From the NCBI GenBank assembly GCA_903884455.1, contig CAISEW010000003.1:41313-105312 (forward strand): a stretch of 64,000 bases of DNA, in the 5' to 3' direction. Under the pieces are notes generated by a model, which saw only the letters and a list, made by a program, of their open reading frames with translations, did no database searches and was not told the DNA's origin. Every line of letters starts with the position of its first letter. Within the stretch, counting starts at the first letter, position 1. Both the position numbers and the translations under genes were made by a program. Source of the stretch: an uncultured Chloroflexota bacterium. Lineage in GTDB: Bacteria; Chloroflexota; Dehalococcoidia; GIF9; AB-539-J10. Shown in pieces: positions 23,116-28,540 of this stretch.

Positions 23116-23384
23116 CATTCACCATTTCTACATACGTGATGCTTAGTTATTGAGTATGGCGCAAACCCTTTCCTTTTGTTTGACGTTAGAGTATTATACA
23201 AGCTACCTACTTGGCAAGGATTTTACATATGAATAGAAAGCTATTGATTGGTTTACTAGCTTTGGGTGTGGCAATGATAGTGGTAGGGTTGGTGATAGTG
23301 TTTGTGGGCTTGCCTTAGCTTAATCGCTCTTGCAATTTATTAGTCTTTTAGCGCTTCAAGGTTCCTGGCCAAATACCAAACAAG

Positions 23385-23409
23385 TTACCACTGGACAAAC
23401 ATTGGGATG
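23385..23409. repeat. Left direct repeat (attL-like): displaced duplicate of the dnaN 3' terminus
   Basis: TTACCACTGGACAAACATTGGGATG versus 27404-27428 TTACCACTGAACAAACAT-GGGCATG. In the minus frame it encodes ...IPMFVQW*, matching the dnaN C-terminus ...MPMFVQW*. Confidence 0.7.
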
Positions 23410-23439
23410 TTAGCCATTCCATGCGTATGTCGCAATGGT

Positions 23440-24288
23440 CTAGCGGCGCTTTGGTTTTTGGCCTAGACCCCATCCTTTTTGACAAGTTCGGAGTATTTTT
23501 GCCTTTTCTTGTTCGGTATATTCAAAGAAATAACTCCTGAATTCGAACATATCGTAAGGGCCCATAATAACAAAGAACTTGCCTTTGGTAGCAAAAAACA
23601 GAGGATTAATATCGCGGCGAACGACATCGGCTAGCCAATTAGCTGCTTTCGTGGCCTCTTTAACGTGGTTTTGGCATTTACTTTGCCAATCCTCATATTC
23701 TTTGAAAAGCTGCCGATATTCTTCTTGTTGTAGCCAGCCTTTAGATTTGTAGAATTTTTCTTCAACCAGTACGCCGTCTGTAGTCTTGCTAGGTTGAGAG
23801 TGTTGAAGAAATGTCTGGTTAGCTTCGTAAATCTCATGTGTCAGTTTTTTCAAAGCACATTCTAGCTCAGGTAGAGTCTTTGGCCATATTGCACCAAGTA
23901 TCTTATTATAGAAAGCGAATAGTCTGACAGATGCGGATTCATCCCAGTTCATATTAACAGATAGTGCTCGAGTCGCCCACTTATCCCAGGTACTAAGCTG
24001 ACAGGCTTCTACGGCGGCATCTATCAAATCTGCATAGATGACGGATTGAGCAGTCGTGGTAGAGTCTTTTGATTGTGAGAGGGTGCGTTCTACCCAGTAT
24101 TCGTGTTGGTCTTTAAAGAGGTGTAGCTTCTCAACCGTATAGTCCTGAGGATTCTTGTCGACCAATGTATGATGAGTGGGACAGAGTAGAATGAGATTGA
24201 AATAGGAGTTTCTTTCTCTCTTGGTCAGATTGCTCTTTCCTCTGGCGTCGTTTTTGCCAAGTCCGACAATATGTGCCTGTTCCCCCAA
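23440..24288 (-). CDS. HNH-endonuclease-domain protein with a roughly 200-aa uncharacterized C-terminal domain; N-terminus apparently disrupted
   Basis: HNH core AHIVGLGK...N...LILLCPTHH. The first Cys pair (CSFPDCE) lies upstream of the track start in the same frame. The only upstream ATG (24423, AAGAGG SD) is followed three codons later by an in-frame TAA (24412-24414). Confidence 0.55.
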   Translation of the reverse strand: MGEQAHIVGLGKNDARGKSNLTKRERNSYFNLILLCPTHHTLVDKNPQDYTVEKLHLFKDQHEYWVERTLSQSKDSTTTAQSVIYADLIDAAVEACQLSTWDKWATRALSVNMNWDESASVRLFAFYNKILGAIWPKTLPELECALKKLTHEIYEANQTFLQHSQPSKTTDGVLVEEKFYKSKGWLQQEEYRQLFKEYEDWQSKCQNHVKEATKAANWLADVVRRDINPLFFATKGKFFVIMGPYDMFEFRSYFFEYTEQEKAKILRTCQKGWGLGQKPKRR

Positions 24289-24516
24289 AGGGAAGCTCTG
24301 AGAAGCCGAGCTTTTGTCCTGGGTCAGCTTGATTTCACAATCAGGGAACGAACATCTTTCAGCTGCCCTTCCCCAAAGTAACTTTATGTCTTTTTGTGCT
24401 ATGTAGATGGTTTAATGCTCCATATTGAATTGATTCTACCTCTTATTGCACCAACATGGGGATGTCTGCCCTTACATGAATGCGTTAGTAGAGGTTTTGT
24501 GTAAGGTCTAATATTA

Positions 24517-25416
24517 TTACTTTTTACTTTGTCCTGTAACATATCTTTTCTTCAGGTTTACAAGTTGATTGTTACGCTTCTGCAACTGGATGCGGATATC
24601 ATCCCAATTCAAAAAGATTGGTATCTCTTCTATTTTAGTTTTGCCATCGAATACGTAGGCAGTGAGTCCCAAGGGGTCTTTTTTATAAACTTCTCTGTAG
24701 TCATCTATAGCTGTTTGTATGGTCGACCTTGCTTCGTTGACACTTTTGGAGGTCATTTGTCGCACTTTATTATGAATTGAACTTAATGCTTCTATATAAC
24801 CTCTTGAAGCAGAAATCAAATCGACCTTGTCTGGCATTTCGTCTAATACCTGTTTCTTAAAACTGCCGTCTGAAGATATAAATTTTCTATCAGCGGAAAA
24901 ACTTGATGAAAACTCCAGTAGACCGCTGATATCAAGAGCAGTCCACCTGCTTCCAAATGCTACCTGGTGAACGGGAGTGCCACTATGTTGGGTGTAGTTT
25001 CTTAAAGCTTCCATAAACCTATAGTCGAAATTTCTATCATACTCAGTTGAACGTAACAATTTTAATCGGTCCTTAATTCCGGTCTCTCTTGGTAAACACG
25101 CACAACAATGGTCAGTCAATCTGTCGGTATAAAGCCTTACTGACGTTAGCAAATTCATGAGCTGTCTGTTCACGGCAAGCCGAGCATCAAAAGAATCAAT
25201 ATACCCACGATAGTTTCGAACCATATATGATATTGAGGCGTTTGTCGACTCCTTTTCCAAATCAATATAGTTGGAAATCATCATTTCGTATTCTTCCTCC
25301 AACTGTAACGCCTCGGCGAGAATATCTCTTGATGCTTTGAGAAGTGAGAATCTCTGACTATCAATAGTTAGTGGTGGAGAATCCCCGAGCGCATTAAGTC
25401 TCAAAAAATATTCCAT
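24517..25416 (-). CDS. Hypothetical protein with an HEPN/Abi-like R-x4-H motif (ALRNYTQHSG)
   Basis: 299 aa, low GC, upstream of and co-oriented with the HNH gene. The Rx4H motif is characteristic of HEPN RNases (AbiD/AbiF-like). Confidence 0.45.
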   Translation of the reverse strand: MEYFLRLNALGDSPPLTIDSQRFSLLKASRDILAEALQLEEEYEMMISNYIDLEKESTNASISYMVRNYRGYIDSFDARLAVNRQLMNLLTSVRLYTDRLTDHCCACLPRETGIKDRLKLLRSTEYDRNFDYRFMEALRNYTQHSGTPVHQVAFGSRWTALDISGLLEFSSSFSADRKFISSDGSFKKQVLDEMPDKVDLISASRGYIEALSSIHNKVRQMTSKSVNEARSTIQTAIDDYREVYKKDPLGLTAYVFDGKTKIEEIPIFLNWDDIRIQLQKRNNQLVNLKKRYVTGQSKK

Positions 25417-25756
25417 TGTACTAGTTAATTAATTTCATTTTTATACGATAGGGTTAGTTGTCATGTGGAATATTATGTACTGAATGGTAAAATACTTCAA
25501 TATGGAAAAATGAAGCGATCGACTTAAGGAGTGAATAAAATTAAGACTGTAGCGGAAAACCATTCATGGTTTAGAGGCACTCCTTATTACTGGGCATCCG
25601 CATCATTACCTTTAGCATATGCGGTGGCGTGTGTTGAAGTTGCTTGTGAAATGTCAAGAAAAGCCAGCTACTCACCTGGTTGACGAGGCTATCAAGATGG
25701 GTGCAAAAATTGTTTCGGTTGGTATTGGAAAACTCGGGTATCGCGTAAAAAGGGTA

Positions 25757-25785
25757 TTGACAAAAAATCAGAATAGTATTACTAT
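25757..25785 (+). promoter_or_regulatory. Promoter TTGACA-17-TACTAT for the gene at 25844
   Basis: Hexamers and spacing read directly. AGGGGGTG SD 8 nt before the ATG. Confidence 0.55.
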
Positions 25786-25826
25786 ATAGTAGCGCTATTG
25801 TTTATATACAACAGTAGTAATACTAT
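25773..25826. promoter_or_regulatory. Pair of near-identical palindromic operator-like sites (ATAGTATTACTAT / AGTAGTAATACTAT) bracketing the -10 and +20 region
   Basis: Each site is internally palindromic around AGTAwTACT. The two form an inverted repeat about 40 bp apart. Confidence 0.5.
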
Positions 25827-25843
25827 AAAGGGGGTGAATTTTC

Positions 25844-26446
25844 ATGGATAAGACACAATTAGCTAAGTGGAAGGAAGAAATAGAAATGGAATTAGCTGAG
25901 GTTGAGAAACAACTAACAGTGATAGAAAAGGAGCGAGCCGCACTTAAGGCGCAACTGGGAGCGGTTAGGACACTACTTTCTCCAACGGAAGAAATAACCG
26001 CAATTGAGAATTATGAAGTGAGAGACCTTGTAGGTGCGTTCATAGCAGATTTGAAAGTGAATGGTTGGTCTGTTCGGAAGCATGCAGGGAAAATTAGGAG
26101 CTATGACGCGAACCGAGGCGGTCAAAGTGTTGAACTGTGGATAATATTCAGTAAATTTCACGAGGTAAGCGAACGATATTGGTTTGGTGTGAATCCAGAC
26201 CATCTTGAAAATAGGAATGGCGGGGTTATCTTGCTGCTCGGTACTCACAAGAAGTACATTTGCTTGCCGTTTACTAAACTACAGGAGATGCTGGAGCGTT
26301 CAAAGAATACGATAACTGGCAAGAAATTCGTGGTAAGGGAGAAAAGCGGGCAAGTTGAGCTCCAGCCTGCAGGAATCGGCGGCAAATGGATAAATGTTAC
26401 CGAGTACTTAAATGAGGAAGGGCTAAAGAGAATTGGTATTAACTAA
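25844..26446 (+). CDS. Hypothetical protein, N-terminal coiled coil plus a C-terminal globular domain
   Basis: 200 aa, strong SD, islet cargo; no recognisable family. Confidence 0.55.
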   Translation: MDKTQLAKWKEEIEMELAEVEKQLTVIEKERAALKAQLGAVRTLLSPTEEITAIENYEVRDLVGAFIADLKVNGWSVRKHAGKIRSYDANRGGQSVELWIIFSKFHEVSERYWFGVNPDHLENRNGGVILLLGTHKKYICLPFTKLQEMLERSKNTITGKKFVVREKSGQVELQPAGIGGKWINVTEYLNEEGLKRIGIN

Positions 26447-26470
26447 GAACAAGAAGGAAGTAAATAGAAA

Positions 26471-26581
26471 ATGATGAAAGTAGCTATCTATTGCCGTGTA
26501 AGCACTGAAGGTCAAGAACAGTGTCCAAAATGCCGTTCTCCTTATTGGAATAAGCCGAAACGGAAGGGAATAACTAAGTAA
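26471..26581 (+). pseudogene. Relic of a large serine recombinase: 36-aa ORF joining the catalytic N-terminus (AIYCRVSTEGQEQ) to a C-terminal zinc-ribbon remnant (CPKCRSPYWNKPKRKG)
   Basis: The RVST-x2-Q N-terminal signature is followed directly by a CxxC zinc-ribbon tail, implying a large internal deletion. Its stop overlaps the next gene's ATG (TAATG). Confidence 0.55.
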
Positions 26582-27177
26582 TGAATATTAAGGTAACCCC
26601 TGCACCCGCAAAAGCAGCAGCCGCTACTCATCCACCGACAATAGCAATGCGGAAAGAACTGTATATATTGATGTATGACGTAGCCCAAAAACATAGGGAT
26701 GAAGCAAAAAAAGTTGATGGCAAAAATCAGACTGAAGAAATTCAGCATTCAATGATATGTATTTTATTCTGCTATACATGTTTGGAAGCATTCATCAATA
26801 CTGTCGGAAAAGACAAGCTAGGTGAGATATGGGAGGAAAAATGGGGGAAATATAGGAGACCTCAAACTGAGGGTAAATGGATGGGAGTGTCCAATCTTCT
26901 ATCAAACAAGAAACACAGAAAACCACACTCGGTTTTCAAAAATAGCGAGGATCCCTTCAAGTCATTTCTATATTTAGAGAAAATCAGAGAAGATTATTTA
27001 GTCCATAGAAAAGCGGAATTTAGCGAAGTTGTTAAAACAAAATATGGAAACACCGAGGGGACAATAAACATTTTGAATGCTAATACAGCAGATTGGGCTT
27101 GCAAAACGGTAAAACAAATGGTGCTTAAACTAGTTGAGAATATGGATGACGCGCCAGAAGTGAAGTGGGTTAAATAA
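26581..27177 (+). CDS. Hypothetical protein (198 aa) with a possible HEPN-like R-x5-H motif (IREDYLVHRK)
   Basis: ORF within the islet; no housekeeping similarity. Confidence 0.5.
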   Translation: MNIKVTPAPAKAAAATHPPTIAMRKELYILMYDVAQKHRDEAKKVDGKNQTEEIQHSMICILFCYTCLEAFINTVGKDKLGEIWEEKWGKYRRPQTEGKWMGVSNLLSNKKHRKPHSVFKNSEDPFKSFLYLEKIREDYLVHRKAEFSEVVKTKYGNTEGTINILNANTADWACKTVKQMVLKLVENMDDAPEVKWVK

Positions 27178-27192
27178 TATTAGGAATAAAAA

Positions 27193-27351
27193 GTGAAAGC
27201 TGCAATCTACTGCCGTGTAAGCACTGAAGGGCAAGAGCAAGATGGCACAAGCCTGTAAACTCAACTGGAATCTTGCCGTAAATATTGCCAGGCTAGGCGG
27301 TATGAAGTCGGGCACGAGTTGAACGAAGCATGGTCCACCAGAAACGAATAG
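27193..27351 (+). pseudogene. Relic of a second large serine recombinase: N-terminal ~50 codons with an in-frame TAA, then truncated
   Basis: VKAAIYCRVSTEGQEQDGTSL-TAA-TQLESCRKYCQARRYEVGHELNEAWS fits the recombinase N-domain consensus (RVSTxxQ...SLxxQLExCRxYA...GxEV). About 39/45 nt identical to the 5' end of the other relic (26476-26520). Confidence 0.6.
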
Positions 27352-27385
27352 GCGTCTGATTTGCACCAGACGCCTGTTTCAATTT
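27350..27385 (+). terminator. Intrinsic terminator, probably bidirectional (also closes dnaN)
   Basis: AGGCGTCTG / CAGACGCCT 9-bp stem with an 8-nt loop, followed by GTTTCAATTT. T-rich on the other side as well. Confidence 0.55.
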
Positions 27386-27403
27386 ATGCGAAACTAAAAT
27401 CTA

Positions 27404-27428
27404 TTACCACTGAACAAACATGGGCATG
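27404..27428. repeat. Right direct repeat (attR-like): the functional 3' terminus of dnaN
   Basis: See the repeat feature at 23385-23409. Confidence 0.7.
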
Positions 27429-28540
27429 ACCACGTGAACATAATTGTCCACGCCTATAGGGCGAATAGTTCCCGGGCTTGAGGGGGTGGTGAGTTCTAGA
27501 GCGACTTGGGCTTGGGAAAGGACAGATAAAACATCGGAAAGATATCTTACATTAAAAGCGATTTTCGCCTCTTCTCCGTCAGTGAGAGCGTCCACTTCAC
27601 CAACATTGTCGCCAACCTCTTCAGCCTGAGCTGAAACAGTTATCTTTCCTGGAGCAAGTTCACTACCAGGGGTAATGACCAGGCGAACTATACCACTGGC
27701 ATCGCGAGCAAATATGGAGGACATTTTAGTAACCCGCAAAAATTCATTAATGTCCACTACAGCTCGCGTGGTATAGCTTTGAGGAATAACCTGGGAATAA
27801 TTGGGGAATGAACCTTGAATAAGCTGAGAAACCAGCTCAGCATCCTTGAGGCGGAAGAGAACCTGGCTCTTTTTTTCGTTTACGGTGATTTCTACGGGTT
27901 CCTCCTGTTCACCAATAAGGCGATTCAGTTCATTAAGGGTTCTCGCTGGGATGATAACCGTAGTCTTTTCTTTGACTGGTGAGCTAAGAGTTGTCTTATG
28001 AACAGCTAGCCTGAAGCCATCGGCAGCCGCCAGGTTGAGCTGCTCGCCATCGAATTCAGTGTTAATTCCGGTTAATACCGGGCGGGATTCTTCAGTGGCA
28101 GCAGCAAAGGCGACCTGCGCAATCCCTTCCCTGAGGCTAGCTGCCTCAATGGTGGTAGTTATGCCATCGTTTATCTGAGGGATAGGTGGGAAATCCGCGG
28201 CATCAATGCCATGAATATGAGCTTGAAAATGGCCGCTCTTAAGCTCCAGGATGCGACTGTTAGCGGGAAGATTGACTTCAATTAGGTCGTTGGGTAAGGA
28301 ATTAACAAAGTCGCTGAGCAAGCGAGCAGGTACAGTTATGTCTCCCTTCTGTTTCACTTTAGCACCAACCCAGCACGTGATAGCCATTTCCAGGTTGGTG
28401 GCTGACAATTTGAGACGTGATTGCTCAGCGGATAAAAGGATATTTTGGGTGATAGGTAAAGTGGACCTCGTGGCTACAGCTCTCCCTACAATGCTTAGCC
28501 CCCTATTTAAGTTTTCTTGAAGACAAGATAATTTCATGGA
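27404..28540 (-). CDS. dnaN: DNA polymerase III beta subunit (sliding clamp)
   Basis: MKLSCLQENLNRGLSIV... three-domain clamp. The ORF is open to 28582, but the canonical start is MKLS at 28540. No dnaA is adjacent. Confidence 0.9.
   Translation of the reverse strand, partial: SMKLSCLQENLNRGLSIVGRAVATRSTLPITQNILLSAEQSRLKLSATNLEMAITCWVGAKVKQKGDITVPARLLSDFVNSLPNDLIEVNLPANSRILELKSGHFQAHIHGIDAADFPPIPQINDGITTTIEAASLREGIAQVAFAAATEESRPVLTGINTEFDGEQLNLAAADGFRLAVHKTTLSSPVKEKTTVIIPARTLNELNRLIGEQEEPVEITVNEKKSQVLFRLKDAELVSQLIQGSFPNYSQVIPQSYTTRAVVDINEFLRVTKMSSIFARDASGIVRLVITPGSELAPGKITVSAQAEEVGDNVGEVDALTDGEEAKIAFNVRYLSDVLSVLSQAQVALELTTPSSPGTIRPIGVDNYVHVVMPMFVQW

Follow-up and report, generated by a model that had tools for sequence, protein, structure and literature searches.

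Introduction

Staphylococcal cassette chromosome elements (SCCmec/SCC) are inserted into the 3' end of rlmH (orfX) by a large serine recombinase (LSR; CcrAB or CcrC), without inactivating the gene. In Dehalococcoides, genomic islands (GIs) at ssrA lie in tandem, are bounded by 20-bp repeats of the 3' end of their target, and many of them have no integration module (McMurdie et al. 2011, PMC3146451). Here, we analyse a locus at which the target is dnaN, the gene for the beta sliding clamp. It lies in a 64,000-nt stretch of an uncultured Chloroflexota bacterium of the class Dehalococcoidia (assembly GCA_903884455.1, contig CAISEW010000003.1, positions 41,313 to 105,312), which we call the window and to which all coordinates without a locus prefix refer. 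An islet of roughly 4 kb, 23385-27428, sits at the 3' end of dnaN. We consider it very probable that this islet consists of the decayed remnants of two, probably three, small elements that were inserted successively into the last codons of dnaN by a dnaN-specific LSR. The islet itself is a dead composite remnant, and its main worth lies in the family that it reveals: dnaN-specific serine-recombinase elements that are widespread in Dehalococcoidia and carry defence-type cargo. The genomes compared below show that insertion at the dnaN end is a clade-wide hotspot in Dehalococcoidia and not a one-off event.

The dnaN terminus is duplicated at the ends of an AT-rich islet

The features that define the borders of the islet are the following.

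27404..28537, minus strand: dnaN (beta sliding clamp), 377 aa, intact; three Pfam DNA_pol3_beta domains, E 1e-25 to 1e-33
27404..27428, no strand assigned: proximal core (core of the attachment site attL), the present dnaN terminus; its plus strand gives the last codons, ..TTEQTWA-stop, of a recombinase remnant (repeat search, profile, junction alignment)
23385..23434, no strand assigned: distal attachment (att) copy (attR), with core 23385-23409 (..IPMFVQW-stop) and element-side arm 23410-23434; profile E=7e-15, arm kept in the relatives named below
23116..23384, plus strand: native spacer 3' of the histidine-kinase gene, colinear with the dnaN-kinase spacer of empty sites

The dnaN product ends in ..HVVMPMFVQW-stop, and the C-terminus ..MPMFVQW is common to every locus that has the dnaN end on the contig. 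The 3' end of the gene, TTACCACTGAACAAACATGGGCATG (27404-27428), has a second copy, TTACCACTGGACAAACATTGGGATG, at 23385-23409. The two are identical at 22 of 25 positions (three mismatches), and the reverse complement of the distal copy encodes ..NIPMFVQW-stop. Allowing up to three mismatches, the 25-mer has two matches in the 64 kb, where 100 dinucleotide-preserving shuffles gave none. Between the copies (23410-27403) the GC content is 0.407, compared with 0.472 for the whole window, making this the lowest 4-kb stretch, about 3.3 standard deviations below the mean. GC at third codon positions is 0.36-0.44 in the four cargo open reading frames (ORFs) and about 0.50 in the adjacent kinase and regulator genes. 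The initial annotation of this DNA had claimed a duplicated 25-nt dnaN terminus, a distal copy that still encodes ..IPMFVQW-stop and AT-rich DNA in between, and all of this is borne out. Its own objection, that the 25-mer might have many other copies, was checked as well; with two matches in 64 kb, it is not a dispersed repeat.

A replication origin placed here by GC skew was considered and rejected, since the skew follows gene strand.

Empty and occupied dnaN sites in relatives

For comparison, we used 80 Dehalococcoidia/Chloroflexota loci (L001 onward) whose dnaN is 67-99% identical, drawn from a scan with one genome per species. An identical dnaN product is encoded on contigs of metagenome-assembled Dehalococcoidia genomes. 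Close relatives carry the same response-regulator and histidine-kinase pair downstream of dnaN. The stop codons of dnaN and the kinase gene lie 255-379 bp apart in L011, L014, L017 and L018, where the genes are convergent and a single copy of the 25-mer is present. Their distance rises to 1-3.7 kb in L001, L002, L006, L007, L008, L016 and L020 and to 6.9-9.4 kb in L003, L004 and L005. At the occupied sites, this space is filled by 1-9.4 kb of unrelated cargo between direct repeats of the dnaN end. L018 is scored as empty from its gene spacing; L011, L014 and L017 also by colinearity. The window segment 23100-23409 aligns as a single block with the spacer and the genuine dnaN end of L011, L014, L017 and L012, and the downstream flank cttgtttggtgttcga.. 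is shared with L014 and L017. This colinearity with the empty-site flank and a real dnaN end identifies the distal copy, 23385-23409, as the displaced original end of dnaN, as the initial annotation had proposed. The empty sites that it had predicted, with dnaN convergent with the kinase gene and one 25-mer, are present in L011, L014, L017 and L018.

Extra copies of the dnaN end were found with a distal-junction profile in 17 of 73 loci. All of them are direct and downstream of dnaN, with at most three per locus. In addition, 19 of the 80 contigs end within 500 nt past the dnaN 3' end (L010, L012, L015, L021, L024, L026-L028, L032, L037-L039, L041, L051, L061, L066, L067, L070 and L071), compared with about five that start within 500 nt before dnaN. 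The dnaN end is a systematic assembly breakpoint in the clade, which is the usual signature of a strain-variable site.

The shortness of the repeat, and nothing else, would favour a reading in which the 25-mer matches through chance or composition and the low-GC stretch is ordinary intergenic or strain-specific DNA. This reading is refuted by the absence of matches in the shuffles, the colinearity of the flank with empty sites, the att profile described below and the same repeat structure in 17 other genomes, and we regard its probability as negligible.

Two further observations concern the borders of the site. The native spacer that separates the kinase gene from the original dnaN end contains a small ORF, MNRKLLIGLLALGVAMIVVGLVIVFVGLP-stop (23230-23328, plus strand). 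Its product resembles a single-pass membrane peptide, and the ORF is kept at the empty site L017. In L065 (11110-11134), GAA replaces the dnaN stop codon after ..MPMFVQW, and reading continues.

An intact large serine recombinase at the dnaN junction

In L030 and L047, dnaN is followed directly, on the opposite strand, by an intact ORF of 510 and 519 aa, respectively, whose last 25 nt overlap the last 25 nt of dnaN. The products carry the Resolvase, Recombinase and Zn_ribbon_recom domains, the full LSR architecture. Intact recombinase genes occupy the dnaN junction in L030, L047, L081-L084 and L103. The intact recombinases in relatives measure 503-519 aa and are convergent on dnaN, with an overlap of 25-26 nt in L030, L047 and L081-L084. 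The recombinase genes P0080 (on three contigs) and P0140 likewise overlap dnaN by 26 nt, and the genes upstream of dnaN differ among these genomes. The TGA stop of the integrated recombinase gene is complete only with the last base of the chromosomal dnaN arm.

The family is large, with 1,154 homologues at E<1e-20, the best 120 of which are 68-92% identical. In 112 of these 120 closest homologues, the motif ..TTGQT(W/S)(A/G), antisense of ..MPMFVQW, falls within the last 60 residues, and 75 end exactly there. P0163, an nr cluster of 52 Dehalococcoides mccartyi recombinases, terminates with ..LTIARTWA, its version of the antisense dnaN motif; a genomic-context look-up for this cluster returned no contig. 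In a D. mccartyi metagenome-assembled genome (MAG), two dnaN-end repeats (L050:10219-11643) lie within 1.4 kb after dnaN. Together with the cluster, these repeats suggest that D. mccartyi, which is cultured and well studied, seems to share the same dnaN system. Two scans of the IMG/VR viral contigs for the recombinase family returned one relative only, at 30% identity, and this near-absence suggests that the elements are not recognised phages.

The duplication could in principle have another origin: homing by the HNH nuclease, the action of a tyrosine integrase, or unrelated insertions that came after the dnaN end had been duplicated locally. In line with such an origin, the HNH gene of the islet adjoins the distal copy, and longer dnaN-like duplications occur in L001, L006 and L050. 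However, the HNH ORF lacks a start codon, the other occupied sites that were compared contain nothing that matches it, and a Pfam scan of 27 island ORFs, which was not exhaustive, gave no tyrosine recombinase. The serine recombinase is the only gene that recurs at the junction and it physically overlaps the repeat; moreover, an attP-bearing circle exists (see below). We therefore consider an origin without the LSR very unlikely and interpret the junctions as products of serine recombination.

Attachment sites and a circular form

The junction alignment reveals a conserved element-side arm at the distal copies, aACGTACGCATGGAAgGGCAAA followed by CAT(C)CC... This arm accompanies the window copies at 23410-23434 and 24465-24488 and is also found in L004, L005 (twice), L007, L030 (twice), L031, L081 and L084. 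On the dnaN side, elements with an intact recombinase read ..TGGTGA followed by GTACGTACG.. Joining this dnaN-side arm to the conserved element-side arm of the distal copies reconstructs an attP of about 52 bp, in which ACGTACGCATGGAAGGGCAAACATCC is followed by CGATGTTTGTCCAGTGGTGAGTACGTACG. Counted from the CC of the Pro codon, its halves match at positions 3-9 (CAAACAT), 11-12 (GG) and 21-26 (ACGTAC), which is the layout expected of a serine-integrase site. From this dyad symmetry and from where the copies diverge, we predict that crossover takes place within the Pro codon, at its CC (27423-27424 in the window).

An att profile that was built only from other genomes and run on the window found exactly three sites, 23385-23432 (E 7e-15), 24445-24478 (E 5e-8) and 27404-27428 (E 4e-6); the next best has an E of 0.16.

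A metagenome scan with an attP-like pattern matched 29 contigs. L086 and L105 are the same 7,574-bp circle from two metagenomes, 99.99% identical and permuted by 3.5 kb, with terminal overlaps of 99 and 123 nt on the respective contigs. The circle contains a full recombinase gene and attP, without dnaN. Its attP consists of CATACGTACGCATGAAATGGCAGA, CATGCCCATGTTTGTTCAATGGTGA and GTAGCTTCGG.. in succession, and the recombinase reads through the core (..TIEQTWACLPFHAYVW..), giving P0164, a protein of 542 aa. Besides the recombinase, the circle encodes an Mrr-type restriction nuclease and a protein of 380 aa whose Rep_trans match, at 26.7 bits, stays below the cut-off of 29.6; six further ORFs match no Pfam family. 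Given the Rep_trans hint, rolling-circle replication or MobT-type mobilisation of the circle is conceivable. Thus, attB, attP, attL and attR of what appears to be one site-specific system are all in hand, attP via the circle of a relative and not from the elements of the window. The initial annotation had proposed that the element lost its recombinase; in agreement with this, relatives hold an intact LSR exactly at the junction, and an attP-bearing circular form exists.

A different element-side arm, TATAGCTATACCTACAACGGAACA, precedes the dnaN-end repeat at L005:17090, L008:12462 and L049:6227. This arm suggests that a second recombinase lineage may use the same dnaN target.

Anatomy of the islet

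Inside the islet, a third att copy and two recombinase stubs are found.

24443..24488, no strand assigned: third, decayed att copy, with core 24443-24464 (..DIPMLVQ-stop on the minus strand) and element-side arm 24465-24488 (repeat search, translation, profile)
26471..26581, plus strand: stub 1, recombinase codons 1-16/17 (MMKVAIYCRVSTEGQEQ) fused to the tail of a zinc-ribbon ORF (CPKCRSPYWNKPKRKGITK-stop) (translation, relatives)
27193..27429, plus strand: stub 2, an internally deleted LSR pseudogene with 48 N-terminal and the last 9 codons in one frame
27350..27375, minus strand: terminator-like hairpin, AGGCGTCTGgtgcaaatCAGACGCCT and ATTCGTTTCT, 29 nt past the dnaN stop and inside stub 2; kept in L001 and L004

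The third att copy, whose arm alone scores E=0.012 with the profile, marks the border between the HNH module and the rest of the islet. Module 1 (23410-24442) holds the HNH gene only. Module 2 (24465-27403) comprises a 299-aa gene, a promoter with a palindrome, a 200-aa gene, stub 1, a 198-aa gene and stub 2. The third copy implies that the islet arose by at least two insertions and, together with the two stubs, argues for at least two, probably three, stacked remnants.

Both stubs are 85-94% identical to the N-terminus of the LSR. Stub 2 reads VKAAIYCRVSTEGQEQDGTSL-stop-TQLESCRKYCQARRYEVGHELNEAWSTRNE-stop.. from 27193, with in-frame stop codons at 27256-27258 (TAA) and 27349-27351 (TAG). The same frame continues to ..KLKSITTEQTWA-stop (..ITTEQTWA-stop), ending with TGA at 27427-27429. 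About 25 unrelated codons lie between its 48 N-terminal codons, which are 85% identical to the intact L030 gene, and its nine C-terminal codons. A stub 2 remnant also adjoins dnaN in L001 and L004. The nucleotide identity of stub 2 to its counterparts is 78-84%, compared with 83-89% for the native non-coding flank. Since stub 2 is no better conserved than this neutral flank, it appears to be an old scar passed on by vertical descent and not something newly arrived. The hairpin inside it may serve as the terminator of dnaN. We also considered, and rejected, that the stub is conserved for a function of its own or is part of a gene that integration had split: a search with a repaired stub, a query that is biased toward N-terminal fragments, gave only stubs of 29-87 aa with differing deletion junctions (after residues 27, 40, 48 and 65), and stub 2 diverges like neutral DNA.

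The fusion in stub 1 recurs in L013, alongside an intact small zinc-ribbon ORF. A 46-nt direct repeat links stub 1 and stub 2, whose recombinase starts are 719 nt apart. Stub 1 may be the scar of a deletion that took out the greater part of one recombinase gene, along with the junction to a third element closer to dnaN; such a third element in the islet is probable. The initial annotation had placed two decayed recombinase 5' ends beside the dnaN-side repeat. Both are real; only stub 2 abuts the repeat, and it keeps its last nine codons as well. It had also read the islet as a single site-specific element that rebuilt the 3' end of dnaN. Site-specific integration and dnaN as the target stand; in place of a single element, the third att copy indicates a composite of at least two, probably three, insertions.

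If a single 4-kb element had been inserted between the two good repeats and had lost its recombinase, the internal features would be cargo and chance. This would fit with only two copies passing the three-mismatch search and with stub 1 not being separated from the downstream genes by any repeat. It fits poorly with the third att copy and its element-side arm (24445-24478, E 5e-8, encoding ..IPMLVQ-stop), with two distinct recombinase starts and with the tandem arrays in relatives, which have up to three extra copies. A single element is therefore quite unlikely, and we maintain that the islet is composite.

Besides the stubs, no other recombinase match was found in the 64-kb window. As the window contains pseudogene stubs only, we class the islet as a recombinase-less remnant and not as an autonomous element. 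Such a remnant could still be cis-mobilizable, that is, excised or moved in trans by a recombinase of the family that is encoded at another place in the genome or on an incoming element. The attR core and element-side arm are well kept (E 7e-15), recombinase-less islands are common at the dnaN site, and the same behaviour has been proposed for ssrA islands (PMC3146451). On the other hand, the 64 kb hold no recombinase, the neutral-like divergence of stub 2 suggests long residence, and the window has AATCTA in place of ACGTAC, the outer motif of the dnaN-side arm, a degeneration that argues weakly against mobility. Overall, we consider a still mobilizable islet unlikely and regard it as a dead remnant.

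Proposed mode of insertion

Starting from the observed repeats, empty sites, junction LSRs, attP-bearing circle and stub decay, we propose the following model. An intact element, as relatives have it, is about 7-7.6 kb long, with the LSR gene at one end, convergent on dnaN. Its attP contains a copy of the last ~20 nt of dnaN (..P-MFVQW-stop) between two partly symmetric arms, and the last 25-26 nt of the LSR gene are the antisense of the dnaN terminus. Recombination would take place at the CC of the Pro codon in ..VMPMFVQW-stop. After integration, dnaN would end in element-supplied DNA (attL), and the original end would be displaced, with its native flank, as attR. Because the element re-encodes ~20 nt past the crossover, and with them the entire downstream half of attB, the junction on the dnaN side may still be attB-like, making further insertions beside dnaN possible. 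Each new arrival would sit beside dnaN and shift its predecessors away from the gene, in the manner of SCC arrays. In the window, decay has left stub 2 with its internal deletion, stub 1 fused to the zinc-ribbon tail and the outermost module with only a start-less HNH gene.

The order of insertion, new elements proximal and old ones distal, is suggested by the re-encoded half of attB and by two arrangements. In L030, L081 and L084, an intact LSR adjoins dnaN, and decayed LSR fragments lie at the distal copies. Furthermore, the dnaN stop codon is directly followed in L003, L006, L009, L013 and L031 by a toxin-antitoxin pair, hicB-hicA, that has a ribosome-binding site of its own (in L003:2317-2747, Pfam HicB_lk_antitox 1e-11 and HicA_toxin 5e-17), and in L003, L009 and L013 this module sits between dnaN and stub 2. 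In both arrangements, the newer elements would be the dnaN-proximal ones.

A more far-reaching proposal is that the antisense overlap is functional. Since the stop codon depends on the chromosomal dnaN arm, the enzyme ends in ..TWA-stop (510 aa) when integrated and is about 32 residues longer (542 aa) when encoded by the circle, a difference that could set directionality or expression. Each integration would also regenerate a usable attB, as the essential C-terminus of the clamp has to be re-encoded, allowing open-ended accretion of defence genes, with remnants such as the islet that can still be mobilised. We regard this combined proposal as speculative and rather doubtful.

Several points weigh against the model of successive LSR-driven insertion. 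The crossover position is a prediction from symmetry and the point of divergence alone. The distal copies at L001:4977, L006:11773 and L050:11619 continue upstream as dnaN-like sequence for at least another 20-45 nt (..GGCGTGGACAACTAT.TTCACGTAGT followed by CATGCC..), which a simple crossover at the CC does not explain. No repeat is detectable by profile on the far side of hicBA in L003, L009 and L013. L001, the nearest relative, whose dnaN is 96.8% identical to that of the window at the nucleotide level, has only stub 2 and the flank in common with it; the cargo is otherwise unrelated. Insertion beside dnaN alone does not account for an old stub 2 whose neighbouring cargo differs between the window and so close a relative. 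Within the islet, there is no dnaN-end repeat between stub 1 and the 198-aa gene, so that the third element depends on the deletion-scar argument. Finally, identical tandem copies could assemble as a circle; the evidence from the circle is strong and falls short of proof.

Cargo genes

The genes carried by the islet are listed below.

23440..24411, minus strand: HNH endonuclease gene; Pfam HNH_2 8e-5, 22.8 bits against a cut-off of 21; PADLOC PDC-M68A 2.7e-22
24517..25416, minus strand: 299-aa cargo gene of a large uncharacterised family with 2,438 representatives
25757..25830, plus strand: putative near-consensus promoter TTGACA-17-TACTAT, then a palindromic operator-like sequence, upstream of the 200-aa gene (sequence reading)
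25844..26446, plus strand: 200-aa cargo or companion gene; no Pfam, NCBIfam or PADLOC match
26581..27177, plus strand: 198-aa cargo gene, HEPN fold, with invariant R136 and H142 (Rx5H)

The HNH ORF also matches PADLOC models of CBASS-type HNH effectors. Its alignments start at profile position 13 (Pfam HNH_2) and at about 43-55 (PADLOC models). The frame is open from 24411, with the first canonical start, a TTG, at 24288; the N-terminal ~40 residues (KDIKLLWGRAAERCSFPDCE) lie upstream of it, with no ATG. As this part precedes the first usable start, the gene is probably dead.

In the 299-aa family, the motif RNxxQH has an invariant R139 and H144, and N140 and Q143 are nearly so. The protein can be called HEPN-like by this motif; a fold search was not discriminating. 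The 198-aa protein has, with confidence, a HEPN four-helix fold and the conserved Rx4-6H motif. The 200-aa gene lies directly upstream of an intact recombinase gene in L091 and of a recombinase stub in L030, and the window segment 25540-26519 is 89% identical to L030 over 992 nt. Nested palindromes, AATAGTATTACTATATAGTAGCGCTATT .. CAACAGTAGTAATACTATA (25772-25830), overlap the -10 element of the promoter of this gene and look like a putative repressor operator.

NCBIfam gave no match for any of the four cargo ORFs, and a PHROGs scan returned only families of unknown function. In line with the initial annotation, the cargo contains no housekeeping genes: it consists of the HNH gene, the HEPN-fold gene and two ORFs without a Pfam family. 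In the search against defence-system hidden Markov models that it had recommended, the HNH ORF matches PDC-M68A, the 299-aa gene has a weak ZorC match only (E 0.005), and PADLOC has no match for the 200-aa and 198-aa genes. Across the family of dnaN-site elements, defence-type cargo includes HNH, HEPN, TIR/PDC-S35, AAA_15/PtuA-like, Mrr, NmeDI-like and OLD-like genes. In L003:6767-10415 and L004:16272-19935, two dnaN-end repeats enclose genes for a P-type cation ATPase and a CorA Mg2+ transporter, indicating that the cargo at the dnaN site does not consist solely of defence genes.

Implications

The dnaN end is a second integration hotspot at a single-copy essential gene in Dehalococcoidia, beside ssrA. 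In a clade that is known mainly from fragmented MAGs, it tells where strain-variable cargo of the defence type can be expected, and it would explain why assemblies break after dnaN. The system is also a candidate genetic tool for otherwise intractable organisms, with more than 1,000 LSR homologues, a deducible attP of ~50 bp and an attB of ~40 bp that is nearly invariant across the order.

A design principle emerges as well. The element targets the DNA that encodes the invariant C-terminal MPM.. motif of the clamp, a target that is unable to drift, and uses the opposite strand for the tail of its own recombinase. The beta clamp of E. coli ends in MPMRL, and this tail lines the partner-binding cleft.

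Comparison with known systems

In the searchable literature, whose coverage leaves out most subscription journals, we found no report of dnaN as an attachment site. It is unmentioned in the Dehalococcoides island papers (including PMC3146451) and in a 2026 Dehalogenimonas pangenome paper. We provisionally regard the dnaN hotspot as undescribed.

The closest counterparts are the ssrA-GIs of the same host clade (PMC3146451). Like the dnaN system, they lie in tandem downstream of a single-copy essential gene, between direct repeats of ~20-25 nt of its 3' end. Both use a CcrB-type LSR encoded on the reverse strand next to attL, with the 3' end of the gene overlapping attL and the stop codon outside the island, and in both systems many islands lack an integration module. 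In contrast, the six-gene integration module of the ssrA-GIs (with the small serine recombinase DsiA and RecF-like, ParB-domain and Mom-like proteins) is not seen beside the dnaN-site recombinase. Here, Pfam assigns the genes that precede the recombinase gene in L030, L081, L084 and L086 either to no family or to HNH_3, Mrr or, weakly, Rep_trans. The dnaN-site elements are also smaller, at ~7-7.6 kb, and, in contrast to the ssrA-GIs, no reductive-dehalogenase cargo was identified among the subset of island ORFs scanned.

SCC elements, the classical analogue, share with the dnaN system the short direct repeats at their ends, tandem stacking at the target gene and common recombinase-less remnants (pseudo-SCC). 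They differ in target, host phylum and recombinase clade. Moreover, a single recombinase acts here in place of a ccrA/ccrB pair, and its gene overlaps the target in antisense. A further parallel is provided by cis-mobilizable elements (CIMEs) and the accretion of integrative conjugative and integrative mobilizable elements, a concept cited in PMC3146451. There, as in the islet, recombinase-less remnants keep att-derived repeats in tandem with newer elements. CIMEs depend, however, on tyrosine integrases at the ends of tRNA or protein genes, and mobilisation of the islet is only putative.

Taken together, the main departure from the ssrA-GIs lies in the target, which is the protein-coding dnaN instead of a tmRNA gene. 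An element that enters dnaN therefore has to supply the final six codons of an essential protein anew.

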